Shown piece after piece: positions 1 through 58,539 of a stretch of 64,000 bases of DNA (positions are counted from its first letter, which is position 1; the number at the start of each line of letters is the position of its first letter). The notes below the pieces were generated by a model. That model worked only from the letters and a program-made list of their open reading frames with translations. It was not told the origin of the DNA and ran no database searches. A program made the position numbers and the translations under genes. The stretch comes from Felis catus (Eukaryota), in the NCBI RefSeq assembly GCF_018350175.1, contig NC_058377.1, positions 62,558,001 to 62,622,000 of the forward strand. Direction: 5' to 3'.

Positions 1-249
1 CATTTTGGGGATGGTGGCTGTGGACAAGCCCAGGTCGATGGAGTCCAACATGGCTAGGAAGTAGTACACGGGCTCATGGAGACTATGCTCAGTCTGGATC
101 ACAAACAGGACAGCAGCGTTCCCCAAGAGTGCAACAAGATACGCAAAGAAAAAGGGAAATCCAATCCAGACGTGCACATCTTCTAGCCCTGGGATACCCA
201 GGAGGAGGAACGAAGAAGGATGGAACTGGGTGTCATTAAGAATGGACAT
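1..249 (-). CDS. Olfactory receptor OR52E6/OR52E8-like, 5' part only (runs off the window)
   Basis: Reads [26 protein letters not shown]...[27 protein letters not shown], 83 codons with no stop. In-frame upstream ATG at 276. Positional counterpart of OR52E6 by recalled human gene order. Confidence 0.85.
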
Positions 250-678
250 TCTCTCTGCCACTGTTGATGAGTGCATATAACAGAGTGAGATGTCAACTTC
301 TCATTAGTGATTCTTGCTCCACTTCCATCTCTTTCCTGACTCCTGGTTAAATGCAAAATAAACTTGTAATATTCATTTTCTCCCATTTCTCCCAATGTTA
401 TCAAAATTTTTATGCCACCCTTACCTGAAGATCAGAAAGCTCCAGGAATAGAGCCAATCTCTCTATTCCCCATATCATTCCCATTCATCAAAGGTTTAAT
501 AAGAAAGAGGAGAAGAATATTCATCTATCAGGTAGATCAAAGTGAGGAGTAGGAATAATACAGGTTTTTGTTCTTTGTATCTTATGGTGTTACACACACT
601 GCATTAATTTATATGAAAAATGCTTTTTCATATGTAATTCAACCCATTATCTTTTAGGGAATTTGAGGACCAGTAATG

Positions 679-11584: not shown

Positions 11585-12526
11585 TTAGCTATCTGTCTTG
11601 AGGAAAACCCTCAGGACTCGCTCCCTAATCTGTTTGGTCCTGACCCCATAGATTATAGGATTGAGAGCTGGCGGAACAACCACATATAGGTTGGCCAAGA
11701 AAATGTGGATATATTGAGGGATATTGTGGCCAAATCGGTGTGTCAAGAAAGAGAAAAATGCTGGTGTGAAAAAGGCTAAGATAACACCAATGTGAGAGCC
11801 ACAGGTGTTGAGAGCTTTGAGTCGGGCATCCTTGGAGGGTAAGCAGAAGATAGCATAGAGGATCCTGACATAGGAGAGAATTATAAGGAGCACATCCAAT
11901 AATAGGAGAGAAATGTTGCCAAGACCGAACATAATATTTACTTTGATGCTGGCACAGGCCAGGCGAGCAATGCCCATGTGTTCACAGTAGGTATGAGGGA
12001 TGATATAGTGCCCACAGAAGGGCAGCCTCAGGAGGAGAAATACCAGAGGGGCCACCATGCACAGGTTCCTCAGAATAGCCATGCCTGCAATGAGGCTGAT
12101 GATTTTGCTGGTGAGGATCATGGTGTACCGAAGGGGTTTACAAATGGCAACATAGCGGTCAAAGGCCATGGCCACCAACACAATGCTCTCCATGGCAGTG
12201 AAGAAGTGGATGAAGAACATCTGGGAAAGGCAGCTTTCAAAAGATATATCCCTGAGGCTGAACCAGAAGATGCCCAGCATTTTGGGGATGGTGGCTGTGG
12301 ACAAGCCCAGGTCGATGGAGTCCAACATGGCTAGGAAGTAGTACACGGGCTCATGGAGACTATGCTCAGTCTGGATCACAAACAGGACAGCAGCGTTCCC
12401 CAAGAGTGCAACAAGATACGCAAAGAAAAAGGGAAATCCAATCCAGACGTGCACATCTTCTAGCCCTGGGATACCCAGGAGGAGGAACGAAGAAGGATGG
12501 AACTGGGTGTCATTAGGCATAGCCAT
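11585..12526 (-). CDS. OR52E8: Olfactory receptor OR52E8-like, intact, 313 aa from MAMPNDTQ
   Basis: Single-exon 7TM ORF with [33 protein letters not shown] and [17 protein letters not shown]; closest to recalled human OR52E8/E6. Confidence 0.93.
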
Positions 12527-12696
12527 TCTTTCTGCTGCAGTGTTTGCACAATTCTTTGTGCACATCAGAGACAATTATTGACTTCTCATTAGTGAATTCT
12601 TCTCCTCTTCTCCCTTTGTCTAGATTCCTAGTAAAATGCAAAAAGCACTTTCATCTTCCCTTACTCTTTTTCAGAAAGAAGTTAAATAATTATTTT

Positions 12697-17751: not shown

Positions 17752-19873
17752 AATATATTCTCTAGATATATCTGGAGTTTGAAAATGGGACTACATATTG
17801 GAAATCTACAGGATTAATAAATTATATTCAGATAATTCTGCACTTGATATCAAGATTGGCTTTGTGCTTAAACCATAGATTATTCTAATTTCCTTTTCAA
17901 ATTTTTCTAAATTTTGAAGGGAAACAGTATATATAGCAAACAAGGGAAATTTTAGGTACAATTCAATTGGAACTAGAAACAGAACACATATAATTATTCA
18001 CATCTAAAATGACTTTGCTGTAAGTGAGGAAATAATGTCATGTATACCTAATCCTAAACTGTAGTCTCTTATATTAGCCAATTCACAGAGATTGAATTTA
18101 TTGGGTAAATAGTAAGAAGGAGAAAGAGAGAAACAGATAGAGAGGTAGAGAAAGACAGAAAGAGAAAGAGAAAAATTGAAGGAATCGGGTTAAAAAGAAA
18201 AAAGGGAACAAAAATGACAGTAAGAACAAGATAGGGGAACCATTAAAATGAAAATGAATAATGACTCTAGAGAAGGAAGACAAAACTTGAGAATTAATAT
18301 ACAGAATATAAATCTGTGGAACAGATGCACTAGTTTAGACACTGTCACCAAGCCATGGCTTATACCTTATTTTCCTCATCTACAAAGTGAGATTGTTGAA
18401 TCAGTGTTCCTTCAGGGTCTAAACGTACCTAAAGAGAAGACACATGGAAAAATGGGGAGTGTTCTCATCTTTTCCCACCAGCCATTCTACTCCCAAACCA
18501 CTGCTGCCTCCAGGACATCTTCCTTTTCCATCAGTGCTTTCCCTTCGTCCAGTTACATGGGGTGGGTGGGTAGAGCAGACAGCAAAGTTACCTGTCAACT
18601 CTAAATGAATTCCAATAAAAAATAAAAATCTGGCTACTGCTATCTACTCTAATAGGAAATTTGAAGCAGAGCTCAGATTATTAAAATGTGGGTGGTATGT
18701 GGATATATTTTCCAAATGTTGACACTGAACTATTATTTCTGTACAAATATCTTCACAACTCTCTCTCGGATGTGTTTGGTCCTGACTCCATAGATGACCG
18801 GATTAAGGGCCGGTGGGACAACCACATAAAGATTAGCCAGAAGAATGTGGATATAGCGGGGAATGTTTCTGCCAAAACGGTGTGTCATAAAAGAAAAAAA
18901 AGCTGGCGTGTAAAAGCACAGCATGACACAGACATGAGAACCACAGGTATTGAGAGCCTTTAGCCGGGCATCCTGAGAAGGAAGGCGGAAAACAGCTCGA
19001 AGGATAAGCACATAGGAGGAGGCAATCAGGATCACATCCACAATGATATTAGAAATCACCATGAGCCCATAGATAATGTTGACCTTGATGGGTGCACAGG
19101 CCAACCGGGCAAGACCCATGTGCTCACAGTACGTATGAGGGATGATGTGATGCCCACAGAAGGGCAACCTCAGAATGAGAAACACGAATGGAGTCACAAG
19201 AATTAAATTTCTTCCCACAACAAGAGAAGCTAGGATGCTGATGGTTTTATTGGTGAGGATCATGGTGTACTGGAGAGGGTTGCAGATGGCAACAAAGCGG
19301 TCATAAGCCATGGCCACCAGGAGAACAGTCTCCATTCCTGTGAACATGTGGATAAAGAACATCTGGGCAAGGCAGCCCCCAAAGCTGATCTCTTGTTGGT
19401 TGAACCAGAAGATGCCCAGCATTTTGGGGATGGTGGACGTGGACAGACCCAGATCGATCATAGACAACATGGCCAGGAAGTAGAACATGGGCTGGTGGAG
19501 ACTGTGTTCAGTCTTGATCACAAAGAGAATGGTGATGTTCCCCACAAGGGCAATCAGGTACACAATGCAGAATGGGAAAGCAATCCAGATATGTACAGTT
19601 TCCAGTCCTGGGATTCCTAGCAGGTGAAACAAGGGGGGATGGAAGTGGGTGTCATTGATGGAAGTCATTCTCCCAGCAAGTGTCATTGAATTCCTGTTGA
19701 GGCGTAGGTATCTCACTCTCGTTATGACCTTTTCTTTATCAAGGTCCTGGAAAGATGTAAGAACTCTGTGTGTGTTAGAGTGCTATGGGTGGTGTGCTAC
19801 AGGTCTTAGTATGAGTAGTTGGTTACAAACATTAGAGATTCTGTTCTTTGCAAAGGGTAATTGGGTAACTCTC
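17752..19873 (-). repeat. Left arm of an inverted duplication (partner 35131-37268)
   Basis: Reverse-complement homology; identical core 18446-19720 = 36537-35263. Confidence 0.92.
18733..19668 (-). CDS. OR52E4: Olfactory receptor OR52E4-like, copy A, 311 aa from MTSIND (in-frame upstream ATG at 19686)
   Basis: Intact 7TM ORF with [24 protein letters not shown] and KALNTCGSH; matches recalled human OR52E4. Confidence 0.92.
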
Positions 19874-20106
19874 TTTTTTTAAAATAACTTTTATTTTTTA
19901 ATATTTATTTATTTTGACAGAGAGAGATAGTGTGAGTGACTGGGGGGGGGGCGGGCAGAGAGAGAGTGATAGAGAGAATCCCATGCAAGCTCTGCACTGT
20001 CAGCACAGAGCTTGACACAGGGCTTGAACTCACAAACCATGAGATCATGACCTGAGCTGAAAGCAAGAGTCAGGCACTAAACCGACTGAGCCACCCAAGC
20101 ACCCCC
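19874..20106 (-). mobile_element. SINEC
   Basis: Typical head, CT tract and tail. Confidence 0.92.
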
Positions 20107-20318
20107 TTTTTAAAAAATGTTTATTTACATATTTTGAGAAAGAGAGAGAGCCAGAGAAAGAATGTGAGCCAGGGAGAGGCAGAGAGAGGAAGACAGAGGA
20201 TCCCAAGTGGGCTCTGTGCTGACAGCGGAGAGCCCAATGAGGGACTCAAACTCAGAAACCATGAGATCATGACCTGAGTTGAAGTCAGACACTTAACCCA
20301 CTGAGCCACCCAGGCTCC
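20107..20318 (-). mobile_element. SINEC (in tandem with the previous one)
   Basis: Typical head, CT tract and tail. Confidence 0.92.
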
Positions 20319-22034
20319 ATTCTGATTTCTTTTTAATCTCCCCTTTTTACTGATGCCCCAGGCCCTAGTAACCACCCTTCTACTTTATGTTACTGTGAGT
20401 TTGGCTTTTTTTTTTCAAGATTCCATAATAACTGAGATCGTGTAATATTTGTCTTTATGTGACTGGCTTATTTCACTTTGGTATGATGTCCACAGATTCA
20501 TCCATGTTGTTGCAATGATAGGATATCCGTCTTTTTAAAGAATGTATAATATTCCAATGCATATATAGACCACCTTTTAAAGTTTCTTTCCCCACGTAGA
20601 AATTTAAGATAAATTGGCAAAACTGAATGTTAATCAGTGAAGTTTCTTTCCCATATGAAGTTTCTTTTTCAATAGCTGTTGACTTTTGTAACTGTTGAGA
20701 AAAATTTGAGATCAGATCTAATAATCTACTGCCTAGAGCTGGAAGAATGGGAAGTGATTGATTAATGGGCATAGGATTTCCTTTTGAATTGATGAAATTT
20801 TATAGAACTAGATAGTGTTAACAGTTGTACAATGTTGTGAATGTACTAAGTGCCACTGAATTGTAAAGTTTAAAATGGTTAAAATGGCACTTTCATGTAT
20901 ATTTTATAATTAAAAAAAATTGCTGGTAATATAGATACCCCAAAAAGCCCAAAGACTTAGTCCAAGCATTTCAAAGACTGGAAACAGAGAATAAGGAAAA
21001 AGGAAGGAGAAAAATAAAGTAAAATACTACCTGTTGTATATTTTATGTGAAATAACAAGAACTGACAATCGACCAAATAGCAGACAGCAAGGTTCATGGG
21101 GATTTCCCTAGAGCTTCTCTTCAGCAAGTTTAATGACAAAAGGGAATTCATATTCATTTTAATTCCAATGTCTGAGACTCTCTGGCACCTGGAGACTTCA
21201 TTATAAATCCCCTCAACACACACACACAAGGACAATTTATAAACATCTCTTAGGGCATATTGAGGGTGTATAAGTACATAATTTCAGTAATTAAATTCAC
21301 AGTTGCCAAATGACTTCCTAAGATGGAACATAGGGAACGTGGTGTTTGTGATCAATGCATCTGCAATGTGTGCTTACGATTGGAATTTGGCTTCACAGAA
21401 ATTGAGTTAAGACCTAGAGTATTGGGACTGGGAATGGTACAGATCACTGGTCTGGGGAAAGGTAGGAGGAAGACTAAGATTGGAGAGGAAATATCTACAC
21501 CTGTAATATTTCAGGCATATATAACCTCATCTACTCAACCCAATAATAATCTGAGATAGATAGTACTATGTTTATTTCTGGATGAAACTGAAATACAGAA
21601 TATGTGTGACTTACATAAGGTCAGAAGGCCAGCAAGAATAGAATCAGGACTCTATCCCATGCCACAGTGAAGTGATATTACAGGGTGTCTACTTCTGCTT
21701 CTTTTCCCATACTGCTTTGATAGTGAGTGAGACACAAAGTTTAAAAAAAAAAAGCCATAGTAGGCAAAAAAGGAGAGAGTAGTGAGTTTGAACTCCTTTA
21801 TAATTGAACTGATTCTACACATTCAATACCTTTGATATAAAAAAGGACACAATATGGTAATCAGTTGTTGGTCTCTCTCCATGCTTTATATTTTGAAAGG
21901 ATTAAACTGAATTCAAACTTGATTATTGGGAGACCCAAATTCATGATTGATGCCATGAGCCAAGATAAGCCAAGAGGTGAAAAGCATAGCTTGTTACAAT
22001 AACAAAAAATGTCTTTGGAACTAAATGAATAGAT

Positions 22035-22625
22035 GTATAGTGAGGAATTTTGCCTTACCCAAAAAGAGGTCTGGCCTTTGTTTTTGGCTTCTAGGAAGTT
22101 ATCTGTCATATCTGATAGGAGTTTAGGATGAGGGGTGGTCAAACTCTATCTCAGTGTAAGGGCTGACCACACTATAAATACCAACAATATAACTTAGGGT
22201 GAGAACTTTGGGTCATGTGGCACCAACCAATCTGGAGATTGAGTTCAACCATGTGTGCAATCAATCAATCATATATACATAAATTTGGACACCAAAGCTC
22301 AGGTGAGCCTCCGTGGTTGGCAATATAACTATGCATATTGTCACACATTAATTCCAGGAGGGTAACTCATTCTGACTCCATGAGGGAGGACAATGGATGC
22401 TTCACATTTACAAACCTCACATTCTACCATCAGCATCTCTTCCTTTGTCTGATTTATGATTTTAATCTTTCCCTATAGTAAACTGTAACCATGAGTATAA
22501 TAGCTTTCAGTGAGTTCTGAGTCGTTCTAGTAGATTAGTGAACCTGGAGGTAGTATGGGAAACTTCCTGAACTTGCAGTTGATGTCAGATGTGAGAACAG
22601 TATCAAGAACTGTGCCCTCAAATTT
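22035..22625 (+). mobile_element. MER21-like LTR
   Basis: GGACACCAAAGCTCAGGTGAGC...AAACTGTAACCATGAGTATAATAGCTTTCAGTGAGTTCTG. Confidence 0.7.
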
Positions 22626-23633
22626 GTGGTTTGGTCAGCTCCAGGAAGCAAATCAGATCTGATGTCACATTTCCCTCTCACCAGTTACAGAAGTCAACAG
22701 GTTCTTCAGAAAGATCTTTATATGGGGAAGAAACTTCACAGATTATCATTGCCCCTTGCCAACATATCTTAAAATTGCTACTTGGGCATACCCTAAGAAT
22801 TATGTGGATCTCCTTCTAGATTCTCAGTTCTGTTCCATTGTCTCTTTTTCTTTCTTTTTTTTTAAATAGCAACGCTGCCATAATCATCATAGTTTTATAG
22901 AAAATCTCAACATTTGGTAATGAAAATCTTCCAGATTTATTCTTCTTTGAGGTAGTTTGGTTATTCTAGGTCCTTTATTTCTCCACCCCTTATCTTTCTC
23001 TCTCTCTATTCTTTCATTACTTTCACTAATAAGTTTGCAAACACAGGTCCATATCAGTGTCACAAAACTTAGTTTCTCTTAATTTCACATCTTGATTCTG
23101 CTGCTTATTAGCAACGGGAAGTTAATGAGCTTATCAAAACCTCTCTCTTCCATAAACGAGAACTTGTGTCACAGAATTGTGGGGGGAGAACTAAATGAGA
23201 TAGTGTATGCAAATAATGACAACAACAATGTCTGAAAAATTGTAGGTACTCAATTAATGATAACCATGATTATTGTGCCGGCTATTATTATGATCAATTT
23301 TATTATCTCCTAATAGTATTTATTTCTTCAGGAAGAGGAAAATTAATGCATTTAATTCCTCTGAACCCATCATTTTAGGAAAGACACAATGTTAGCTTCT
23401 ACATTCTTTAACACTTATGCTGCAGGTCAGGAGTGATACTGGGATTATTTATAGAGAGCTGAAAAGGGGTAAAGAATCAAAGGCCTTTAGAAAAATTTGT
23501 TCCCATTATGAATCCTTTGTTAAGGAATGTTTTTATTTTTAATTTTTGTAGATCTCAGTTAACTGTGGATGAATTGTCCAGTGGGAACCACCACCAACTT
23601 TTAAAAATCACACCATCGTCAGCCTGCTGGAGA

Positions 23634-24599
23634 ATGTCTTCTCCCAATGTCACTGAATCCCATCCTCCTTCATTCCTATTGCTGGGGATTCCAGGGTTGG
23701 AAGTTGCACAAATCTGGCTTGTATTTCTCTTCTGTGCTGTGTATCTGATTGCTCTTGTTGGAAATGTTATCATTCTGTTTGTTATCTGGGTTGATCATAG
23801 CCTTCACCAACCTATGTTCTACTTTCTGGCCAAGCTGTCAGTGATTGGCCTAAGTCTCTCTACTACTACCATCTCCAAGATGCTGGGGATCTTCTGGTTC
23901 AGACTTCAGGAGCTGTGCTTTGGGTGATGTGTTGCTCAAGTGTTTTTTATCCACTTTTTTACAGTCATGGAGAGCATTGTACTTCTTGCCATGGGTTTTG
24001 ATCATTATGTGGCTATTTGCAACCCCCTCAGGTACAGCATGATTCTTACCAACAGAGTGATTGGTGTAATTGCTGTGATAGTGGTACTAAGAAGCTTATG
24101 CATGATTGTTCCCATCATTTTTCTCCTCCTGAGCCTGCCTTACTGTGGACACAGAATCATCCCTCATACCTATTGTGAGCACATGGGAGTGGCACGTCTA
24201 GCTTGTGCCAGCATTAATGCCAATGTCTACTATGGTCTTGGAAATATTTCTATCTTGTTTCTGGATGTGCTTCTTATCATTGTCTCATATATTAGGATCT
24301 TATATGCTGTCTTCCACCTCCCTTCCCAAGATGCCCGCCTGAAAGCTCTGAATACCTGTAGCTCCCATATTTGTGTTATCTTGGTCTTCTTTCGTCCAGC
24401 TCTCTTCTCTTTCCTCACTCACCGCTTTGGTCATGACATCCCCAAGTATATCCATATCCTCCTGGCTAACCTCTATGTAGTCATACCCCCTGCCCTCAAC
24501 CCAGTCATTTATGGCATCAGGACCAAGTAGATCCAGGAATGGGTAAAGAGTCTCTTTGTTAAAACAAGATTGATGAGAGGTAATTCATTCAAGTCATGA
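23634..24599 (+). pseudogene. OR52E-family pseudogene (positionally like human OR52E7P)
   Basis: One continuous frame from [22 protein letters not shown] with in-frame TGA 23925-23927 and TAG 24528-24530; DRY changed to DHY; next stop 24597-24599. Confidence 0.9.
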
Positions 24600-24671
24600 A
24601 ATTATAGGGTCTGAAAGGACTAAAATTTATGATAAAATTAATAAATTTCTTTCACCAAAATTAATTTTCTC

Positions 24672-24840
24672 TCTATATAGATATCTATAGCTATAACTAT
24701 AGCTATAACTATAGATGATATATATAGATATAAGATGATATAGAGAAAGAGATAGAGATAGAGATAGAGATAGAGATAGAGATAGAGATAGAGATGATAT
24801 AGATATAGGCATAGATATAGATATATATGAGATATATATC
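24672..24840. repeat. Compound (ATAGAG)n/(ATAGCT)n microsatellite
   Basis: Read directly. Confidence 0.9.
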
Positions 24841-25295
24841 AGAAAAAATACTGCCTGTAATTGTTGGAGGTACGTACACTTCTGTGTGTCTGAATGTGTA
24901 CTTGCAATGATACTCTCTGTTGACCTCTGGCATAGAATATTACATACAAGAATAAATTTAAAGGAGGAAAACTTTGATTCACTGAAATAACTTTGTGTTA
25001 AAACTGGTGTTCTAGATCTCTTTCAGGCAATAATAAGATTTCTTTGACAGAGATGTTCAATTAGAGATCACATAACCAATTACAGGTATTAAGTAAACTG
25101 CAACAAGTTTCTATAATTAATACAGTACTGCTTAAAAATAAATAGTACAGTTTTTACTGAAGCATATGCAAGCAAAATATGGGAATTAGACTAGATTTTT
25201 TGGTGTTTTATTTTTTCGTTTTGTGTTCTCTCAAATTCCTGATTCTATAAAGTTCCTTCTAAGCCTAACCTTCAATATAATACACCCTCATTCTT

Positions 25296-25511
25296 TTTTT
25301 TAAAGATTGTTTTTTAATGTTTATTTTTTCAGAGAGAAACAGAGTGCAAGTGGGGGAGAGGCAGAGAGAGAGGGAGACACAGAATCTGAAGCAGGTTCCA
25401 GACTCTGAGCTGTCAGCACAGAGCCTGATGCAGGGCTCAAACTCATGAACTGTGAGATCATGACCTGAGCAGAAGTGAGGCACTTAACTGATTGAGCCAT
25501 CCAGGTGCCCC
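25296..25511 (-). mobile_element. SINEC_Fc-type SINE
   Basis: TSD ATACACCCTCATTCTT at 25280-25295 and 25514-25529. Confidence 0.95.
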
Positions 25512-25859
25512 GATACACCCTCATTCTTGAACTGACAAATTTAATACTATGTCATCTGGCTAGCCCATCCAGGAGTTTAAAAAAATGTTGTGGAACAAAT
25601 GAAAATTGCAAGAGGGAATATTTTTCAACAAAGAAATTAGTAAAAAAAACAAAAACAAAAACACAGACAATACAAAGAAATAATGTTACTTAACAATTGA
25701 AGTCATAATTTAGAAAGATTAAAAGATGCATTCAGTGGTCTGAAGTTTATTGAATAGAAAATTGAGTAGTACTAAAGTATATGAAGTGGTGAGTAAAATG
25801 AGTGTGTGGATTTTTAGAAAGTATTATCTCACACTAGCATTTAGAAAGGATAGGAGATA

Positions 25860-25993
25860 GGGGTGTCCTGGTGGCTCAGTAAGTTAAGCGCCCAACTTCG
25901 GCTCAGGTCATGATCTCATGGTTGGTGAGTTTGAATCCATTGGTAGCACAGAGCCTGCTTCAGATCCTCTGTCCCCCTCTCTGCCTCTCCCCT

Positions 25994-26040
<47 letters not shown>

Positions 26041-26050
26041 AAGAAATAAA
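25860..26050 (+). mobile_element. SINEC with internal deletion
   Basis: Head, shortened body and long (CT)n. Confidence 0.9.
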
Positions 26051-26529
26051 CACACACACACAAAATAGGAACGATAGGAGGTAGAAAATTAGTGAAGCAC
26101 AAAGTTAATCTTCAGGTATCTATGATTCGAGAAGAACTGGAATTTGGATAGAGGTAATGCAAATAAAGAGAGGGTATCTGCTCTGAAATAAGAAAGAGCC
26201 ATAAGGTATGATTTAGCCACAAAGTGGCAAGAGACATCATGGATGACTACTTATTTATTTATCTGTTTTTAACTGGGTGGCTTTGGGTAGGCATTCAAAT
26301 ATGTAAGAAGAAAAAAGAAAATTATTCATGAACATGAAAAATGCAAATATAAGAAAGGGGATGGGAAAAGAAATTGGACTGTAAAGAACCTTAGAAAATT
26401 TAGAATGTGAAAAAGTAAATGTAACAGGATTTTCTGAAGTGGATGAACTCAGTACAAACAACGCACTATGGTTTTCAAAAACAACAACAGAAAAGAAAGA
26501 ATGATAATTTAAAGGAAATTTTATGCAAC

Positions 26530-26740
26530 ACCTGTGTGGCTTAGTCCACTGAACATCCAACTTTGTCTCAGGTCATGATCTCCAGTTTGTGGATTCAAGC
26601 CCCGCATCGGGCTCTGTGCTGACAGTTCAGGGCCTGGAGCCTGCTTCAGATTCTGTGTCTCCCTGTCTCTCTCTGCCCCTCCCTGCTTGTGTCCTCTCTC
26701 AGTCTCTCTCAAAAATAAATAAATAAACGTTAACAAAAAA
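26530..26740 (+). mobile_element. SINEC
   Basis: Typical body and AAATAAATAAACGTT tail. Confidence 0.92.
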
Positions 26741-27044
26741 GGAAAGTAAATTTTAAAGACATGACTGACCTAAGTAAAATATTTTTCAGCTTAAATAAAG
26801 TCAAATTTAACTTTGGATGTTACAATACTGATCACTTCATCTAATTCTATGATTTTCCTAGTCATTTGTATTCATTTATTATACAAAACAAATGTTTTTA
26901 AAGTATATTATTAATGATGATCATTCAATCTCAGTGAGAAGAGTTAATATTGAGGTAACGGTAGACAAGAAACAATAGAGCTAGCATGTACACAAGTTTT
27001 TATAATCACCCATTTAATTTCACATATATTATTTACTTTCTATT

Positions 27045-27235
27045 ATTTTTAAAATTTTTAAATTTATTTTGAGAGAGAGCAGGGGAGGAACAGAGAGAGA
27101 GGGAGAGAGAGAGAATCCCAAGCAGACTCTGTACCATCAGTGCAGAGCCCGAAGCAGGGCTCAAACTCATGAACTATGAGATCATGACCTGAGCTGAAGT
27201 TGGACACTTAATGGGCTGAACCACCCAGGCTCCCC
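27045..27235 (-). mobile_element. SINEC
   Basis: Typical body. Confidence 0.92.
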
Positions 27236-28616
27236 TAGCTTCATATTCTTTATCCCTTGAACTAATGAGGTACCAAATACTCCCTTGATTTAAACACTTT
27301 ATTCTGGACATGGGTTGTAAAAGTCTTCCTAAATTTCTATGTCAAGATATATTTTTTGAGTCCAAGTATTTACTTCTGATCTCCTTCAAAAGTACATTGA
27401 ATTAATAATAAGCTAGAAATAATAAAAATATAGTATTTTTGGTGATTACAATATAGGTCATCAACAGACTGGATATTTTTTTAAAACTTCAAGGAAAGAG
27501 AAGGAAATTGAATGGAAATATTGGATAATATAAACAACAACATAATAAAACAAATGAAATATAGTGCTTCCAGGATAATGTAGGTCACTTTTTTTTCCAA
27601 ATAGCACAAATTGTTTCCAAATTCAGAGCCAAACAATACAGTAAGTAGAGCAGACCATGAAGCAATCACCAGGATACTAAACAGATGCCTATATTCATGG
27701 AATAAATGGGCCAATAATCTTTCCTCATATTTTATACACAGAGATGTACAGTGAACTGATTGCTACTTCTATCCTCCAGAAAAAACATAATCTGATTGGT
27801 ATCAAAATTCTCAAATGCAAAACTGGATGTTAAAAAAAAGTCTACATGACTTGAGGAAAATTATTTTGTATTAGAATTCAGTGTTCATTCAGTCCATTAT
27901 TCATGTCCAAGAGAAAAATGAAGACATTTTGAAAAATTGACAGAATATTTAAAACATGTTTTAAAGCATTAGATCGATAACAAAGTAGCAAAGATAAATG
28001 GGACAAGATGCCAGAAAATAACAGAAAGTAAACAAAAATGAATCCTGCCTTCGGTGGTGTTTTTCCTCAACATGTACTACGCATTTTCTGATTTAGAAGA
28101 GCTCTCAGAAAGTCTGGTAATATCAGGAGAGCTTTAACAGTATCACAGCATTGGGTAGGATTAAGCCTTGGAGTTCAGAGCTTGACAAGGATTAGGGGAA
28201 ATAGATCACCAAAGGAGTGCCCAGAGAGTGAGGGTAAATCAGAAATACAGCAGTCATCACAAAGTATGTAACCTGTCAGCATTAGCTCAGTTCTAATTAG
28301 AATGGCATGATGTGCTTTTACCCTAACTGCTTATCAGAACTGAAGTGAAACCTTTTTTGGTGATGATAACAATACGGATGACATAAAAGTATTCTGACAA
28401 GTTGTCCTTCATAAACTCAGCATTTAATAATAAAAAACCATATAACAAACACAAAAATTAACAGAACCAAAAAGCAAACAAAAAAGGAGAAAAATATTCA
28501 AAAGGGAACCAGATACTTAGATTACCAAATAACTATGATTATTATACAAAGCAAATTGGATGGCAAGATGAAAAATTTCAGCCATGAACCAGAAACTAAT
28601 AAAAATCAATTGAAGA

Positions 28617-29605
28617 GGAGTGACACAAGCAAGATGGTGGAATAATAGGTTTTCAGCTCATGTCTCCTTATAGAAACAAATATTTGACAGTCATCCATGA
28701 ACCAAAATGCCTTTGTGGGAGCTTTGGGATCCAAGAAGAAGGTTGTAAGACCCAGGTAGAGCCCATGACTGAAAAACGGTAGCTTTGAGAAGGCAAGCCC
28801 ATACACTAATGGCAGGCCTCCTGACCATAGTCCTGGCTGCATACTGGAGGCAGCCATGTCTTTTGTGAACTTGGCTCCAGTCCCACCTGTATGTAATCCT
28901 GATACTAGCCACTTTTGCCAAGGGAATCAGTAGAATCCATGCCCATCTCTGCCCTCTGTAACAGGTATACCAACCTCAGACCTGATTGTGATCCCTGAAG
29001 CAGTTGCCATGGCTTGATTCCAGCCCCACTCTACCACAGACCAGGGGCAATTTTGCCTGAATAGAGACAAGCCTAGTGGCCCAATGGGAACCAGTGGGGG
29101 CTACACCCATCTGCAACCCTGCTAACAGATCTGCCAACCATGGAGCCAACTGTAGGCCAGATGATAGCCACAGACCTGGTTCCAGCGCTACTCAACCATG
29201 ATCTCAGAGGTAGTCCCATCAGTCCAGTGACCCAGCAGAAGGATTTTACCTGCCAAAATCAGTCTAAAAATTGGAAGGGGTATCTGTTCTTTCAAACACA
29301 CATACCAACTTAAGTTACATAGATCACAAAGAATCAGATAAACATGACACCAACAAACGTAACTAATGAACTCCAATAGCTGGTCCTAAAGAAATGAAGA
29401 TCTATAAACTACTTAATAAATAATTCAAAATAATCATCTTAAAGAAGCTCAGTGCACTACAGGAGAAGATAGACAACTAAATGCAATCAGGAAAACAATA
29501 CATGAACAAAATGAGAAGTCTAACAAAGGAGTAGGTACTATAAAAATGAACCAAACAGAAATTATACAGCTTAAAATATAAATACTAAACTGAAAAAATT
29601 CAACA
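28617..29605 (+). mobile_element. L1 5' UTR and start of ORF1, decayed
   Basis: CAAGATGGTGGAATA start; ORF1-like TTCAAAATAATCATCTTAAAGAAGCTCAGTG...ATCAGGAAAACAATACATGAACAAAATGAGAAG. Confidence 0.7.
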
Positions 29606-30500
29606 AAGAAAAAGTGCAGTCAATATATACATCAGAATATTATTTAACCTCCAAAAAGAAAAACATCCTGCCATTGAAGGAACATGGATGAAACTGAGGA
29701 CATGACTCTAAAATGAAATAAGCCAGTCACATGAAGACAAATATTGCATTATCNNNNNNNNNNNNNNNNNNNNNNNNNNNNNNNNNNNNNNNNNNNNNNN
29801 NNNNNNNNNNNNNNNNNNNNNNNNNNNNNNNNNNNNNNNNNNNNNNNNNNNNNNNNNNNNNNNNNNNNNNNNNNNNNNNNNNNNNNNNNNNNNNNNNNNN
29901 NNNNNNNNNNNNNNNNNNNNNNNNNNNNNNNNNNNNNNNNNNNNNNNNNNNNNNNNNNNNNNNNNNNNNNNNNNNNNNNNNNNNNNNNNNNNNNNNNNNN
30001 NNNNNNNNNNNNNNNNNNNNNNNGGAAAAGGGAAGATTAAAAAAAAAATTAGAAATAGAATGGTAGTTGCCAGAGGAAGGGGTGAAGAGTCTATGGGGAG
30101 TTATTGTTGAGTGGATNNNNNNNNNNNNNNNNNNNNNNNNNNNNNNNNNNNNNNNNNNNNNNNNNNNNNNNNNNNNNNNNNNNNNNNNNNNNNNNNNNNN
30201 NNNNNNNNNNNNNNNNNNNNNNNNNNNNNNNNNNNNNNNNNNNNNNNNNNNCTCAGTCTGTTGAACGTCCATCTTCAGCTCAGGTCATGATCTCGCGGTC
30301 TGTGAGTTCAAGCCCTGTGTCGGGCTCCGTGCTGACAGCTCAGAGCCTGGAGCCTGCTTTGGGTTCTGTGTTTCCCTTTCTCTCTGCCCCTCCCCTACTC
30401 ATGCTCTGTCTCTCTCTGTCTCAGAAATAAATAATCATTAAAAAAATTTTTTAAATGGTTGAGATAGTAAATTTTATGTTATGTGTATGCTACTACAATA
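29606..30500 (+). mobile_element. L1 3' end (L1MB-like) with two N-runs and a nested SINEC at about 30252-30447
   Basis: ATGAAATAAGCCAGTCACATGAAGACAAATATTG; ATGGTTGAGATAGTAAATTTTATGTTATGTGTAT. Confidence 0.75.
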
Positions 30501-31869
30501 AAACTCAGGGGAAAAAATGGTAAAGGTAGGAAACACAAAACCCAAGGGGAAAAATGTGTATGTTATAATAGCAGTACACATTGATATAAAAATAAGAGAC
30601 TTGGAGATTGTGTTTTTCATCTTGTCATCCAATTTACTTTGTATAATAATCATAGTTATTTAGGAGTCCATGTATCTGGTTCCTTTTTGAATGGTTTATA
30701 CAGAAGACCATCATGGAGAACATGAGAATTGGTGGAAAGTTGAAGGAAAGTGAAAATGAGCAGTAGTTATTTTCTAAGTAGGACTCTTGATCACCTAAGA
30801 CAGAGTAATGTTTTGGAGAGTCATGAAGTAGAATTAAAGTTTACAGTTTGGTTGGGCATTTGCTGAAGTACTTTGCCAACAGTGGTGTATATACTTTATC
30901 ATATAAAGCCCAACATCTATAATGGAGAAGCAGAGGGAATAAAAAGAAATCTTAAGTAGAGATTAGATAGAGTCAGGCTTGATTTGTAAAGGTAAATGTT
31001 GAAACAATGGGGAAAATGGGTACCATGAGGGAGTGACCAGAGAGAGGCCAGGAATGTAAGCTTTTCATTCATCAAAAAGAGAAGCAATAAAAAAGAGAAC
31101 ATATCAGATCTAACCAGAATCTCTTTTGAACACAGATATTATCTTCTCTCTCTTAACCACTCAAAATTATCTGAACTTAGAAGCCAAAAAAAAAAAAAAA
31201 AAAAGATTTTCTAATGTATTCAACTGTCCTTCAGTCTTTTCCTGTCTGTACTCAGGAAAATCCTGACCTAAGGCATGCCCTGGTACTTGAAGGTCTACCT
31301 CACCATCATCCAGGGAGGGAGACAAAGAAAGCTAAACTTTGAGCTCTAGCTAGATTCTGTTTTCTCAGGAGAATGTGGAGTTTCCTTCACCTTCTGTCAA
31401 AAGAGTTAAAACACATGAAAGCCCCTCTTCAAAGACTTTATCTGTTTAAAATTAGTTATAGGTTGTAAGGAGAATCTTTCTGAGTTGGAAGAAAGCTGAT
31501 ACTATTATCTACAGGGATGAACACTGTCAAAAAATAGACTGTTGGTACAGGGTCTAATGTGTCTATTTTAGGGGTCTCATCTTTTGAAATCATGGTCATA
31601 ACACCAGACTGCATCAGGATTCACACATTTATATTAAACAAAGCAGAAGAGTCACTAATAGCTGTTTCCTAAGAAGTCACACTCCGAAGACTTAATGACT
31701 TAAACTTAATTATTTTCATGACATCATCCCCCAGAAAGACTCCCCCCACCCCTTCAGGATATTTCGTTTCCTAACAGCTCATGAGACATAATCTCCCCTG
31801 ACCTAGAAGTTACATCTGATCTGGTGATTTGTTTCTGCAGATGGTAGAGAGGAACAAATAGTTAGATGG

Positions 31870-32113
31870 GCTTAATGACCCATCAGCCCAAGTTTATGTG
31901 CCCAGAGGACTCTGAAGGCTAAGCTCAGGGATCCTGGGACATGCTTAGACTTAGGGATGTTTTCACTCATTATAAAGATTTTCTCCATGTGACAGGATGG
32001 ACTTAGGACCTGGAGGCTTGAAGGGGCTCCAATCACCATATGTAAGCACCTAGGCTTATGCTGTGGTATTGGTTCAAGTGAGGGCTGACAGAGGAAATAT
32101 TAGAAAGGTAAGG
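31870..32113 (+). promoter_or_regulatory. Candidate promoter and non-coding exon 1 of OR52E4 copy B
   Basis: TAATGA near 31873; O/E-like CCCAGAGGA, CTCAGGGA, TCCTGGGA, CTTAGGGA; TATAAAG 31971-31977; donor AAG|GTAAGG at 32108. Confidence 0.55.
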
Positions 32114-35100
32114 CTACATAGACAGGGGAGATGAGACACAATAGTGAGGAAGAGAAGAGGTAAATGCGGATAGAAGGGGACAATAGTCTCTTCTCTGCTC
32201 AGGAGTTATCCAAACCCCATTATCCATTCTCTTCACAAAAGAACACAACAGAGCACATGGGACTGGAACAGACATTCAGCAGGTGAGCACAGAGATATGC
32301 CAACAGGCANNNNNNNNNNNNNNNNNNNNNNNNNNNNNNNNNNNNNNNNNNNNNNNNNNNNNNNNNNNNNNNNNNNNNNNNNNNNNNNNNNNNNNNNNNN
32401 NNNNNNNNNNNNNNNNNNNNNNNNNNNNNNNNNNNNNNNNNNNNNNGCTAGAAAGCCACAAATAGTTTTCAGTAGCATAACCACATATATTGTCTCTAAA
32501 GAAGATTGCTTTGACTAGCAAATTGTTGGCAGGGAAGCAGACCCAGCAACTAGGCTTGCTGTGATTCATCTGAGGCAGAAGAAGGCTACTGCAGGCCACT
32601 GTCATATGTTTGAGGCTAGATGTAGAAGTGTGACTGATGTCATATATAAATAAAATGATGTAGGTATTATACATTTGGTCTGCCCTATAATCTTATTTGT
32701 TTTCTCCTGCATAATCCTGGTTTAGAGGTTCTCAATTCTACATTGCCCCCCTTCCCCCACCATGCACCTACTACTTTATGGAAATATATCCAAGCCTTTT
32801 TAATGGAGCCCAGTACAACTGCTAGTTTAGTCATATCCAATGTCCCCCTCTAGTTTTCTGTGTCATAGCCTATTCATGACAGTGCCTGAAAGAAGTTACT
32901 CTCATCAATTGGTAGATCCCACCCAGCTTGAGAAATCTGTAGAATGAGAGAGAACACAGTTTACTTTCCAACTGAACTGTATTAGTTTATGTGTGAATCC
33001 ATAGAATTCCAGAAATAAATCTAAATGTGAAGCTCTACACTTCTCATTCACTTTGCAATATTCTGGGTCATCCCTCTTTCCCTGCCTCCTTCATCTTACC
33101 CTATAGTCACCATGAATTATTTGTAAGTAATAAACTCTTTATAATCAAGTAAGTTATTTGTGCTATTAGGTGACATTCTTAGCTATTTATAATTAAAAGA
33201 AAAATAAAATTTGGGGAAGGACTAATAGTTTAAATAAGTACCACTTATTGAATATATCCTAAGAGCTAGTCCTTTACATGCATCGGTCATATTTGTGCTT
33301 AAAACAAGTCACATGGATAGAATTTATTAACTCAATTTTACAGAAAAAAAACTGATGTAGAAAGTAAAGGAATTTGTTCAAGGATTCCCATTAGTATGGC
33401 ATAGCAAGATTTCAAGGCGTGTTTGAATGAATTCAAAGTCTGTATAAATCATCTATAATATTCTACTATAAGAGTCAAAGGAAAAAGAGCCAGTGGGGTA
33501 AAGAAAAAAATACAACTTCAATAAATTGAGAGTTGGTGGTCACTAAAAGGGAAAGATCTCTAACTATTATCAATTAAACTTTTAAAATGGACTCTGGGCT
33601 TTTTGTCCATGTGCACATCTAGAAATGGATGAAATTACTACCTTGCCTTCCAGGAATAATCCTTGAGCTTATTGGCCCACACTATCTGCCACTATTTGTG
33701 GCACACAACTGCAGCAGAAATAAGGCAACTTCCTGACCAAAATTGTGAGAGGGTGGGTGCCCTACTGAATTTGAGGTATATTATCAAAAAGAGCTCCCTC
33801 TGCTTCTCCCCTGGAAAGCTCCCCCATCAGCCAGTAAAGTATCATTGAAAAACAGCAGCCCTGAAGATGGGGCTGACTCTGGACTGTGAATCTCATGATG
33901 TGTCATCCTACTTACTTCCTCAGACTCTCCTAAGTCCCACCAGCCATTGCCCTCTGATTTCTCAGCCTTGCATACTCCCATGGCAAACATTGTTTTCTCC
34001 ATATATATGAATAATTTTCTCTCTAGCTTCTTTGGAGACAAGAGATGTTCCTCTTTCTCAAGCATAGCAAGTGACTATCAATTCCTTTGCCTGGGTATTA
34101 CTACTCAGCAATAACTAGCTGGCAAAGTTACATGCAATCACATACATAATAATAATAATCAGCTTAATAACTAACTCTCTTTTTCTCTTTCTATCTCTCA
34201 CACATACACACACATAAGCGCACACTTACACAAATCCTGATTCTATTCAACAGCTAAATTCTGAAAAACTTGGAACCATACACTCCTGTGGCAGTGTTGG
34301 GAATGTTAAAATGAATATCCCCCAGTTTTTGCCCGCAGGCAGCAGCATTTCTATTGGTAACAAATAGATAAATACATAAAAGAAGTCATGTTGTATTAGA
34401 TGCAGCATAATTGTACAATATACTAGTGGCACAAAGTGTTAAAACAATTTCCTTTATTCATTTCAGGGATCAGGAAAGATTCATTAACAACACTTCAATT
34501 TTGGTGTCACTGAAATTTGTTACTTGTTTTATCTATTCATACCTGAAGCCAGGAACAACTTAAGGACAAGGTGTAATTTTCTATGTTCATTATATGTTGT
34601 AAGAAAGATGAACGTAGTTTAATTGATAAGCAAAAGGTAATTTATTGTAAGAACATTAGGGAATGGCAGAATAAACAGTCTCTGGAGGTGTGGGATAGGA
34701 AACTAAGGCATTCCATAAGATCAGGAATCATCAAAAACAACAACGGTCTCATAGGAGAGATAGATTGAGGGAAATTTAAAGAAAGACCATCTGATTGACC
34801 ACCCTTAAGTCATGTGACTATATGAGATCCATTAGGTAAATCCCTACATTTATATTATATCAAAAGACAGCCAATGGTATAATTCGGTCTTTCTCATTTG
34901 GACTTTGGATTCTCTAACACCAGATCGCACTTTGAGAAGTACCGGGTATAGCAGTTTCCCAAAAATAAAAAAGGAGCTATTTGAAAAAAAAATGGAAGAA
35001 AATATCAAGCAGATAAGCATACACTACTAGGTGAAAGACTATAAGTTCCTTCAAAGAACTCACATTATTACAAAAGTTAAAGGTCCACATAACATCACCC

Positions 35101-35130
35101 ACAATTCATTTCAGAACAATAACATGTATT

Positions 35131-37268
35131 GAGAGTTACTCAATTACCCTCTGGAAAGAGCAGAATCTCTAAAGTTTGGAATCAACCACTCCTGCTATTA
35201 CCTCCAGCACACCAGTTAAGGTTTGTCATTTCCTATGACCTTGATAAAGAAAAGATCATAAAGAGAGTGAGATACCTACGCCTCAACAGGAATTCAATGA
35301 CACTTGCTGGGAGAATGACTTCCATCAATGACACCCACTTCCATCCCCCCTTGTTTCACCTGCTAGGAATCCCAGGACTGGAAACTGTACATATCTGGAT
35401 TGCTTTCCCATTCTGCATTGTGTACCTGATTGCCCTTGTGGGGAACATCACCATTCTCTTTGTGATCAAGACTGAACACAGTCTCCACCAGCCCATGTTC
35501 TACTTCCTGGCCATGTTGTCTATGATCGATCTGGGTCTGTCCACGTCCACCATCCCCAAAATGCTGGGCATCTTCTGGTTCAACCAACAAGAGATCAGCT
35601 TTGGGGGCTGCCTTGCCCAGATGTTCTTTATCCACATGTTCACAGGAATGGAGACTGTTCTCCTGGTGGCCATGGCTTATGACCGCTTTGTTGCCATCTG
35701 CAACCCTCTCCAGTACACCATGATCCTCACCAATAAAACCATCAGCATCCTAGCTTCTCTTGTTGTGGGAAGAAATTTAATTCTTGTGACTCCATTCGTG
35801 TTTCTCATTCTGAGGTTGCCCTTCTGTGGGCATCACATCATCCCTCATACGTACTGTGAGCACATGGGTCTTGCCCGGTTGGCCTGTGCACCCATCAAGG
35901 TCAACATTATCTATGGGCTCATGGTGATTTCTAATATCATTGTGGATGTGATCCTGATTGCCTCCTCCTATGTGCTTATCCTTCGAGCTGTTTTCCGCCT
36001 TCCTTCTCAGGATGCCCGGCTAAAGGCTCTCAATACCTGTGGTTCTCATGTCTGTGTCATGCTGTGCTTTTACACGCCAGCTTTTTTTTCTTTTATGACA
36101 CACCGTTTTGGCAGAAACATTCCCCGCTATATCCACATTCTTCTGGCTAATCTTTATGTGGTTGTCCCACCGGCCCTTAATCCGGTCATCTATGGAGTCA
36201 GGACCAAACACATCCGAGAGAGAGTTGTGAAGATATTTGTACAGAAATAATAGTTCAGTGTCAACATTTGGAAAATATATCCACATACCACCCACATTTT
36301 AATAATCTGAGCTCTGCTTCAAATTTCCTATTAGAGTAGATAGCAGTAGCCAGATTTTTATTTTTTATTGGAATTCATTTAGAGTTGACAGGTAACTTTG
36401 CTGTCTGCTCTACCCACCCACCCCATGTAACTGGACGAAGGGAAAGCACTGATGGAAAAGGAAGATGTCCTGGAGGCAGCAGTGGTTTGGGAGTAGAATG
36501 GCTGGTGGGAAAAGATGAGAACACTCCCCATTTTTCCGTGTGTCTTCTCTTTAGGTACGTTTAGACCCTGAAGGAACACTGATTCAACAATCTCACTTTG
36601 TGGATGAGGAAAATAAGGTATAAGCCATGGCTTGGTGACAGTGTCTAAATTAGTGCATATGTTCCACAGATTTATATTCTGTATATTAATCCTCAAGTTT
36701 TGTCTTCCTTCTCTAGAGTCATTACTCATTTTCATTTTAATGGTTCCCCTGTCTTGTTCTTACTGTCATTTTTGTTCCCTTTCTTCTTTCTAATCTAATT
36801 CTTCCCATTTCCCTCTCTTCCTCCTTCTCTCCCTCTTTTTCCTCCCCCCTCCTCCCTTCTCTCCTTCTCTTTTTATCTCTCTCTCTCTCCCTATCTCTTC
36901 TTCACTGTTTCTCCAATAAACCAAGTATCTGTGAATTGAAGAATATGGGAGAATACAGTTTAGACATTAAAGATATATGACATTATTTCCTCACAGCAAA
37001 GTCATTTTAGATGTGAATAATTGTATGTGTTCTATGTCTAGTTCTAACTGAATTCTACCTAAAATTTTCCTTCTTTGCTACACCATTTACCTTCATATAT
37101 ACAAGATTCCAGAAAATTTGGAAAAGGAAATCAGCATCCTCCTATGGTTTAAGCACAAAATCAGTCTTGATAGCGAATTCAGAATAATCTCAGTATGATT
37201 TATGAATAATGCAGATTTCCAATATGTAGTACCATTTTCCAAACTCCAGGTATAGGTAGAGAATGTAG
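35131..37268 (+). repeat. Right arm of the inverted duplication (partner 17752-19873)
   Basis: In the core, paired positions sum to 54983. Confidence 0.92.
35315..36250 (+). CDS. OR52E4: Olfactory receptor OR52E4-like, copy B, 311 aa (in-frame upstream ATG at 35297)
   Basis: Protein identical to copy A; orientation matches my recollection of human OR52E4. Confidence 0.93.
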
Positions 37269-51909: not shown

Positions 51910-52851
51910 ATGCTGCATTCCAACAATACACAGTTTCACCCCTCTTCCTTCCTTCTGGTGGGGATTCCAGGACTAGAAGATGTGCACATCTGGATTGGCT
52001 TCCCCTTCTTTGCAGTGTATCTGACAGCCCTCCTAGGGAACATTACTATCCTGTTTGTGATCCAGACTGAACACAGCCTCCACCAACCCATGTTTTACTT
52101 CCTGGCCATGTTGGCCTGCACTGATCTTGGCCTGTCTACAGCCACCATCCCCAAGATGCTAGGAATTTTCTGGTTCAATCTCAGGGAGATTGGGTTTGGT
52201 GCTTGCATCACACAGATGTATACTATCCATATATGTACTGGCCTGGAGTCTGTGGTGCTGACAGTCATGGCCATAGATAGATACATTGCCATCTGTAACC
52301 CCCTGAGATATAGTATGATCCTCACCAATAAGGTGATAGCTATCCTGAGCATAGTCATCATAGTCAGGACTTTGGTGTTTGTGACTCCATTCATATTTCT
52401 CATCCTAAGATTGCCTTTCTGTGGTGTCCGGGTTATTCTTCACACCTACTGTGAACACATGGGTTTGGCAAAGTTGGCTTGTGCCAATATTAGGATCAAT
52501 GTTGTCTATGGCTTGATTGCTTTCTCAGTGGGATACATCGACCTTTCTGTGATTGGATTCTCCTACGTTCAAATCCTCCGAGCAGTCTTCCATCTACCTT
52601 CCTGGGATGCCAGGCTCAAGGCACTTGGCACATGTGGCTCCCATGTCTGTGTCATGGTAGCTTTCTACCTACCAGCCCTCTTCTCCTTCATGACACATCG
52701 CTTTGGCCACAACATCCCTCATTACATCCACATTCTTCTGGCCAATCTGTACGTGGTTGTTCCCCCTGCTCTTAACCCTGTTATCTATGGGGTCAGGACA
52801 AAACAGATAAGAGAGCGTGTACTAAGGATGCTTAACCCTAAAGGCTATTGA
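51910..52851 (+). CDS. OR52E5: Olfactory receptor OR52E5-like, intact, 313 aa
   Basis: [11 protein letters not shown]...[20 protein letters not shown]...[15 protein letters not shown]...IAFSVGYID, as in recalled human OR52E5. Confidence 0.93.
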
Positions 52852-58106: not shown

Positions 58107-58539
58107 TGATGTGGGAAACAAAGGCAGAAGGAAATGGCAGAAAAAATTAAATGTTCTTATAACCTGCAGCCCATTGACCAATACTTGAGGCAGGCAGAGT
58201 AAAACTTTTCTCCAGGAACTCCCTACTGTCTTAATTCTAATGATTTGCCAGAGGGAAAAACAACCTTAGCTTGAGGATAGCTAGGCCTCCCATATCCTAT
58301 GAGTTTTCTTTAGCATATGAAAATCTCATTGGAAACTTCCCCTGGACTTGACCTCCCCCAAATCCATAGTATTTGACCAGTCTCTCCTCAAGGCCCAGTG
58401 GCAGCTATTCCTGCCCATGGGTCCTGTCCCTGTACTTTAATAAAATCACCTTTTTGCACCAAAGACATCTTCAAGAATTCTTTCATGGCCGTCGGCTCCA
58501 GACCCCACGAACTCAACTATCACCACAAAAATCTCATCA
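58107..58539 (+). mobile_element. ERV LTR, copy 1
   Basis: TGATG...CATCA inverted termini; AATAAA at 58439; homologous to 59558-60225. Confidence 0.75.

Follow-up and report, generated by a model that had tools for sequence, protein, structure and literature searches.

The DNA examined here is a 64,000-nucleotide stretch of the Felis catus genome (contig NC_058377.1, positions 62,558,001 to 62,622,000; hereafter the window), which lies in a cluster of class I olfactory receptor (OR) genes. It carries two intact copies of the receptor gene OR52E4 in opposite orientation, whose open reading frames (ORFs) are identical at the DNA level and encode 317 aa each (Table 1). Self-alignment of the window returned a single inverted match for the region (17754-19873 / 37267-35131, 91% identity over 2166 columns), the two arms of which flank a spacer of 15,257 bp (19874-35130). 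The longest exact run between the arms spans 1275 bp and is made up of 34 bp before the first ATG, the ORF and 287 bp after the stop codon. The inverted arrangement, the mismatch-free core and the agreement of the two translations are all as an initial annotation of this DNA had described them. Longer and older homology was also sought by arm alignment, and none was found past 19873/35131 or 17752/37268; a match between 20436-20578 and 29609-29753 was considered as a continuation of the arms and rejected, being one of many dispersed copies. A genome search returned two copies of OR52E4 among the best 40 of 176 candidates scored. Words of arm B were present at 0.91-0.97 in 20 of 24 listed runs (10 studies, one of them possibly the source of the assembly); three listed runs with values of 0.06-0.08 were not counted as evidence.

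Identity between the arms changes in steps

The identity profile along the arms is a mosaic of 78-92-100-96-82% that includes neutral sites. Read on the plus-strand copy, the arms differ at 24 of 107 positions in 35131-35237 (Kimura two-parameter distance, K2P, 0.27), 2 of 25 in 35238-35262, none of the 1275 in the core, 6 of 213 in 36538-36750, 3 of 40 in 36751-36790 and 78 of 432 in 36791-37268 (K2P 0.21). The whole 3' shoulder therefore has 9 differences in 253 bp (about 96% identity). The outer arms had been judged roughly 75-80% identical by eye; they are indeed diverged, and on aligned columns the figure becomes 78-84%, with flank K2P values of 0.18-0.27.

The core contains 321 non-coding and about 224 synonymous sites (approximately 545 neutral sites), and all are identical. 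At the divergence of the flanks 98 differences would be expected against the 0 observed (P about 1e-47), and constraint on the protein alone is therefore no explanation of the identity. The shoulder is distinct in divergence from the core (P=6e-4) as well as from the outer arm (P=5e-9), which indicates at least two events. The GC content of the non-coding part of the core is 41%, compared to 28-32% in the outer arms, a weak pointer toward raised GC.

Table 1. Features of the 64,000-nucleotide window, in window coordinates.
Feature	Position	Strand	Basis
Arm A, additional OR52E4 locus of carnivorans, with the end of the intron, the coding exon and 3' sequence of about 1 kb	17752..19873	-	self-alignment; dog minus-strand OR52E4 in the same place in the gene order
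OR52E4 ORF copy A, intact, 317 aa (311 aa from second Met)	18733..19686	-	name from cluster members and tree
Exact 1275-bp core, arm A; putative latest conversion tract	18446..19720	-	alignment
3' shoulder, arm A, 9 differences/253 bp; putative older tract; locus-specific markers	18193..18445	-	alignment
AATAAA, candidate poly(A) signal of copy A, position homologous to that of copy B	18097..18102	-	sequence
Two short interspersed element (SINE) copies abutting the 5' end of arm A, presumably CanSINE-like	19874..20318		many 70-80% matches in window
Dispersed repeat fragment, which we take to be L1 3'-end-like	20330..20578		39 other matches at 72-79% (best 40 of 1163 candidates scored)
150-bp element upstream of copy A, homologue of OR52E7 upstream element; candidate borrowed promoter or 5' exon	20591..20741	-	119/147 identical
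Partner element, 0.85-1.0 kb upstream of OR52E7-like ATG	22636..22786	+	alignment
OR52E7-like pseudogene in spacer, stops at codons 98 and 299	23634..24599	+	N-terminus like that of OR52E7 rows (by eye); dog, mouse and chimp genes on the same strand
Arm B, ancestral OR52E4 locus	35131..37268	+	strand as E7 and E5; likewise mouse, rat, chimp, cow
OR52E4 ORF copy B, intact, 317 aa, R6.59 (R270) and H45.52 (H189) kept	35297..36250	+	alignment to OR52cs
Exact 1275-bp core, arm B; candidate splice acceptor 35287-35289	35263..36537	+	alignment
3' shoulder, arm B, ends at CT-rich stretch with large indels	36538..36790	+	alignment
AATAAA, candidate poly(A) signal of copy B	36915..36920	+	sequence
OR52E8-like 'L' gene, 326 aa, half of second homogenised pair (direct orientation)	11585..12565	-	ORF, alignment
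OR52E8-like 'S' gene, 5' part; continues to about 690 bp left of window	1..358	-	exact runs of 449 and 330 bp with L gene
OR52E5, single copy, synteny anchor	51910..52851	+	ORF, cluster names, dog order

The encoded receptor

The protein falls in an OR52E4 clade of 46 rows (support 99/97) within a 53-row tree, apart from OR52E5, OR52E8 and the other 52E receptors; the tree omitted cluster members P0005 and P0006 (76% identical to the query), and of the 281 members of the protein cluster, 40 were covered, with at least 17 distinct sequences among them. It differs from the Lynx rufus OR52E4 at one residue (99.7% identity) and is 89-91% identical to marsupial proteins. Several residues had been pointed out as unusual in the initial annotation. 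Among the mammal rows compared this holds for L19 of the PLFHLLG motif, which is nearly specific to felids; H21 is also found in dingo, mink, ermine, two pangolin rows and warthog, and the Asn of ISNII is the common state.

The closest solved relative is the consensus receptor OR52cs bound to octanoate (E=4e-147; PDB 8HTI; PMC10703812), in which the carboxylate site of OR52 receptors, including R6.59 and H45.52, was defined. Both of these residues, H6.58, F6.55 and the FY6.48xP motif are shared in the alignment; R270 and H189 of the cat protein correspond to R265 and H183 of OR52cs, with the numbering offset counted by hand. Both loci are thus predicted to encode a receptor that would bind carboxylic (fatty) acids. 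Unlike OR52cs, human OR52E4 is without a confirmed ligand, and assays with C5-C11 fatty acids failed, likely because of poor surface expression (PMC10703812).

The two loci are common to cat and dog

From left to right, the window and its flanks contain E18-like(+), E15-like(-), E8(-), E8(-), E4(-), the E7 pseudogene(+), E4(+) and E5(+), where the names E15 and E18 are taken from the dog order only. Dog chromosome 21 reads E18P(+), E15(-), E8D(-), E8C(-), E8(-), OR52E4(-), E7(+), OR52E4B(+) and E5(+), whereas mouse, rat, cow and chimp have one E4 each, on the strand of E7 (file 1 of PMC7160942; all 7 entries of the name covered). Human likewise has one OR52E4 in the tree of file 4 of that paper, as the initial annotation had it. 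Copy B is therefore syntenic with the E4 gene that lies between OR52E7 and OR52E5 in mouse, rat, chimp, cow and dog, and copy A with the minus-strand copy of dog. These orders and strands, together with the single E4 elsewhere, argue that copy B occupies the ancestral place and that copy A is common to the cat and dog lineages. The OR52E7-like gene of the spacer has two stops in the cat genome, is intact in the dog, cow, mouse and rat tables and is a pseudogene in chimp. In both genomes compared, cat and dog, it stands on its ancestral strand and nearer the minus copy, and hence no fixed inversion of the spacer is seen. Two copies each were counted in cat and dog. With substitution rates of 1-2.2e-9, the flank K2P of 0.18-0.27 corresponds to 41-135 My, which fits a duplication before the cat-dog split. 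That split is placed at 45-60 Mya (PMC4084570).

The two dog copies differ from each other at 6 of 311 residues (peptides from file 7 of PMC7160942, compared by eye), and both differ from both cat copies at the same 13 sites (by eye). The dog states A56, S91, R103, V181 and T309 are absent from 23 other mammal rows; felid Q97 occurs in 0 other mammal rows, and H14, L19 and H305 in one each. The tree in PMC7160942 also groups dog OR52E4 with OR52E4B. Closeness within species, combined with shared derived states, suggests that each lineage has spread its own changes to both loci. Clustering of the copies by locus across species had been named beforehand as the outcome to look for against this idea; the two dog loci group by species instead. 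Five of the six dog inter-copy differences lie on the minus-strand copy (P=0.22), one of them being R194W at a site that is Arg in 24 of 25 other rows and Gln in one.

Other species provided further observations. In Lynx rufus, a protein with the private change A72G is represented by two RefSeq accessions from a single contig, which would fit two converted loci. The E4-like protein of ermine carries a low-quality flag and an apparent frameshift. Pangolins have four or more OR52E4 copies (P0058-P0079, P0269-P0273), several of which group by locus across two species, unlike the carnivoran pair.

Upstream DNA of copy A

Ahead of the first ATG, copies A and B remain homologous for 187 bp, up to the point where two SINEs and a dispersed repeat adjoin copy A. 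Just past these repeats lies a 150-bp element that is 81% identical to one upstream of the OR52E7-like gene and has the same orientation relative to its own gene (Table 1). The alignment of the two elements scored 154 against a shuffle maximum of 65, and their K2P of 0.22 matches the age of the arms. One further weak hit (E=0.001) was found in 1.56 Mb of the cluster, and N stretches in the spacer could conceal another copy. A genome search with the element returned only itself; since it missed the known 81% copy, it is weak evidence against the element being a repeat. A scan for O/E and homeodomain promoter patterns gave no strict O/E site and no match in the shared element, and was uninformative. 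The arrangement suggests that DNA from upstream of OR52E7 and an OR52E4 coding exon were joined to form copy A, possibly by fold-back duplication with deletion or by template switching, and that copy A may be a promoter chimera with a candidate OR52E7-derived promoter.

Both copies retain a candidate acceptor ahead of the ATG, and their AATAAA motifs are at homologous positions. Copy A has a second candidate acceptor (a polypyrimidine stretch and CAG, 19749-19747), whereas copy B has TAT at 35234-35236; the zone of high identity begins directly after this second acceptor.

A second homogenised pair in the window

The OR52E8-like L and S genes at the left of the window (1-358 and 11585-12643, with L016) form a second homogenised pair. 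They are in direct orientation 12.3 kb apart and share exact runs of 449 and 330 bp, with flanks near 60% identity. Seven comparisons of L with S in other felids gave 9-14 different residues over positions 30-290, compared to 2 in this genome, and three states common to both copies here are absent from 19 other felid rows. The S-specific motif at 212-220 is present in other felids and in one dog protein and is overwritten in this genome; among proteins from ENA it is polymorphic. The proteins from ENA include a converted S allele (P0292), an unconverted S allele (P0291) and an L/S hybrid (P0290). At every variable site shown, P0292 agrees with the homogenised S allele of the cat genome, and thus the homogenised state of this pair exists elsewhere. 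Proteins that start as L and end as S were found in Leopardus geoffroyi and Acinonyx, and a hybrid in tiger too, as would be expected from deletion or conversion between direct repeats. The felid orthologues hence show the marks of conversion in the OR52E8 pair. Private states shared by the two copies numbered one only (tiger, position 105) in the seven comparisons with other felids, which suggests that recent whole-gene conversion of this pair is limited to particular lineages.

Receptor pairs with diverged flanks recur in the cluster

The 1.56 Mb examined cover about 60% of the span of hits in the OR52E4 search and contain 106 OR loci, 81 of them intact. With cut-offs that were set after the table had been seen, and flank hits that may include repeats, 11 pairs have a coding identity of 97.5% or more. 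Five of these have near-identical flanks and are recent duplications. The other six, comprising 12 of the 106 loci, have flanks at 85% identity or less or flanks that are unalignable; four are direct and two inverted. The OR52E4 pair is the sole 100% pair of the six, and another has a longer exact run (1453 bp). The suggestion that the pair is unusual is not supported, given the same pattern in six pairs, four of them direct.

Several of these pairs merit separate mention. Two OR52L-like genes (G000:C21:62924772 and 62964072, both on the minus strand, L107 and L111) have 99.7% coding identity and flanks at 78-79%. OR52L1 and OR52L2 appear alike by eye within cow, dog, horse, chimp, orangutan and rat in the peptides of PMC7160942 (file 7), and retain a locus-specific Ile/Met after PG in transmembrane helix 6 (TM6). 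Judged from these sequences, the OR52L genes may have been a converting pair for as long as placental mammals have existed. An OR56B-like pair, named from the dog order only (G000:C21:62945163 and 63008215, both on the plus strand), is 63 kb apart with the 1453-bp exact run and flanks at 67% and 85%; its GC content at third codon positions (GC3), 0.66, is the highest of the six pairs. The second inverted pair, G000:C21:61248922 (-) and 61273988 (+), has 98.3% coding identity and older flanks, and its members are 25 kb apart.

Other duplicated stretches were also seen. In G000:C21:62695840-62817566 several OR pairs 60-73 kb apart have flanks at 97-100%, a recent segmental duplication or an assembly duplicate. 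An inverted OR pair 235 kb apart, G000:C21:62636202 (+) and 62871521 (-), has 96.6% coding identity and little flank homology. The loci at G000:C21:62472902/62505244 have 1008 bp in common without a mismatch, most of it in DNA upstream of the genes. Within the window, a direct repeat of about 360 bp (58138-58497 / 59838-60200, 74% identity, 1.7 kb apart) probably consists of old mobile-element fragments.

Discussion

We think it probable that OR52E4 was duplicated once, likely before the cat-dog split, and that the two inverted loci have likely been kept alike since then by repeated gene conversion without crossover. Such conversion is what we infer from the identity profile, the gene order and the grouping of the proteins by species. 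An old inverted duplication with exchange between the arms had already been proposed in the initial annotation, and the dog loci, the divergence of the flanks and the stepped identity now support it. The same loci in the same order in dog, and protein similarity that follows species, make it likely that the pair predates the split and was homogenised in each lineage.

The history may have been as follows. An inverted duplication in an early carnivoran would have placed a copy of the OR52E4 exon head-to-head with OR52E7, with part of the DNA from upstream of OR52E7 in front of it. The exons would then have stayed alike enough to pair through purifying selection on the protein, while the ends drifted and gained SINEs and indels that stop conversion tracts. 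Tracts of differing length and age could have left the steps in identity; at the rates used for the flanks, the last full tract would fall within about the past 1-3 My, and the shoulder would go back about 8-18 My. Since a crossover between inverted copies flips the spacer without deleting a copy, such a pair can persist. Neither selection for identity nor an extra dose of receptor would be required. Conversion confined to a coding region under purifying selection has been described (PMC3924837).

Some results weigh against this explanation. All 12 genes of the six pairs are intact, compared to 69 of the 94 others, and selection could keep both copies. GC3 is not raised in the pairs (median 0.590 for the 12 pair genes and 0.592 for the 69 others, P=0.96), and raised GC is a reported hallmark of converting pairs (PMC2720389). 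A single gene with two isoforms could account for the two Lynx accessions. The cross-species test consists of the proteins of one caniform, read by eye; the orthology of the loci rests on order and strand rather than on the flanking DNA of other species; and the distinction between 100% and about 99% identity in the core is that of the assembly sequence.

It is also conceivable that conversion is real but that selection maintains both copies and keeps them identical, since the receptor would then be expressed in a larger number, or a wider zone, of neurons; in a variant, copy A would be expressed from its OR52E7-derived promoter. We consider this improbable. Both copies have stayed intact in cat and dog over at least 45 My, OR52E4 is well conserved as far as marsupials, and copy A has an OR52E7-type upstream element while OR52E7 itself is broken in the cat genome. 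Identical transgene copies are chosen independently (PMC1995454), and PMC6056506 reports on one study in which sensitivity rose when two mouse ORs were over-expressed. However, the pattern is common in the cluster, five of the six dog differences including R194W are on the minus copy (although this asymmetry is not significant), the ermine protein has an apparent frameshift, and mouse, rat, cow and chimp have one copy. For mouse TAAR4, 12-fold more neurons left the detection threshold unchanged (PMC6056506). Concerted duplicates selected for dosage, of the histone, ribosomal and Y-ampliconic type (PMC3924837), would have both copies expressed and a benefit from more product; the indirect signs of this for the OR52E4 pair are mixed. 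The suggestion in the initial annotation that two loci serve to raise the number of neurons is thus unsupported, and a dosage role, though possible, is doubtful.

Independent recent duplications in cats and dogs, or a single recent overwrite, would dispense with long exchange. OR52E4 has been duplicated separately in pangolins, squirrels and elephants, and the grouping of several pangolin copies by locus is what ordinary birth-and-death predicts. For the carnivoran pair, however, independent duplications would need an identical inverted insertion between E8 and E7 twice, and a recent origin cannot yield a flank K2P of 0.18-0.27 or a shoulder of intermediate age; we regard this account as very unlikely. 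We give equally little credence to an artefact of assembly or polishing that equalised two slightly different copies. The dog copies are 98%, not 100%, alike, and the identity of the cat core comes from the assembly; yet polishing is unable to turn 80% into 100% or to create the dog pattern, 9 differences persist directly beside the core, P0292 equals the homogenised E8-S allele, and the Lynx protein has its double accession. Least credible is homogenisation templated by mRNA-derived cDNA instead of by pairing between the arms: the high-identity zone does start after the candidate acceptor of copy A and tails off about 125 bp short of the candidate poly(A) signal, but purifying selection and adjoining indels would set the same borders, copy B is without an acceptor at that position, and the route presumes germ-line transcription.

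Gene conversion as a mechanism is well known, and replacement of one paralogue by another through conversion of a whole OR coding region is a known process (PMC1995454 and PMC1794568, citing Sharon et al. 1999; treated also in PMC10463633). The relevant passages of PMC1995454 and PMC1794568 hold no case traced by cat-dog synteny, and the cluster-level orthology work there assumes very limited conversion. Long-lived converting pairs in mammals include BMP8A/B (inverted), DDX19A/B and TUBG1/2 (Carson and Scherer 2009, PMC2720389). The OR52E4 pair resembles them in having two copies, grouping by species, mosaic identity and diverged upstream DNA, in inverted or direct orientation. The pairs described by Carson and Scherer are multi-exon and have lasted over 100 My, with a rise in GC used as support; the OR52E4 pair has one coding exon, an age of about 45-60 My or more and no rise in GC3. 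By these comparisons it would qualify in most respects as a long-term concerted pair of the BMP8A/B kind. The filter in PMC2720389 needs two exons and an intron, so single-exon OR coding regions could not pass it, and the word 'olfactory' occurs 0 times there.

In dog, OR52E4 and OR52E4B (Olender et al. 2020, PMC7160942) have the same loci, strands and neighbours as the cat pair, and both are listed as intact; dog OR52E7 is intact, whereas that of the cat genome is broken. In that work the dog pair appears by name only, the main text has no mention of 'gene conversion', and cat is not included, so that the shared age is unnoted. No publication on the OR52E4 pair was found among the papers listed by the literature searches, with subscription journals and bioRxiv supplements outside their scope, where catalogues of cat ORs may note the pair.

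A bolder reading, which we put forward tentatively and hold to be unlikely, is that an early-carnivoran chimera let OR52E7-derived upstream DNA drive an OR52E4 exon, and that through conversion this exon has stayed matched to the original for at least 45-60 My. One receptor would then be expressed from two unrelated promoters, in more cells or in a second zone; such locked pairs would account for roughly one tenth of the class I cluster, and many 'species-specific' OR duplications would be old pairs.

For the study of this gene family, the pair is of value for the cat-dog evidence of its age, for showing how frequent the pattern is in the cluster and for a lead on a promoter chimera that can be tested. 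It is also a natural experiment for OR gene choice, as two loci with different upstream DNA encode the same protein and their transcripts can be told apart by the 3' differences. Trees of coding sequences would score it as two recent duplications, one in cat and one in dog, whereas gene order and flanks say one old event. With this pattern at 12 of the 106 loci examined, and with OR52L1/L2 apparently showing it in several mammals, conversion may in this way inflate lineage-specific OR gains and blur the names of orthologues.

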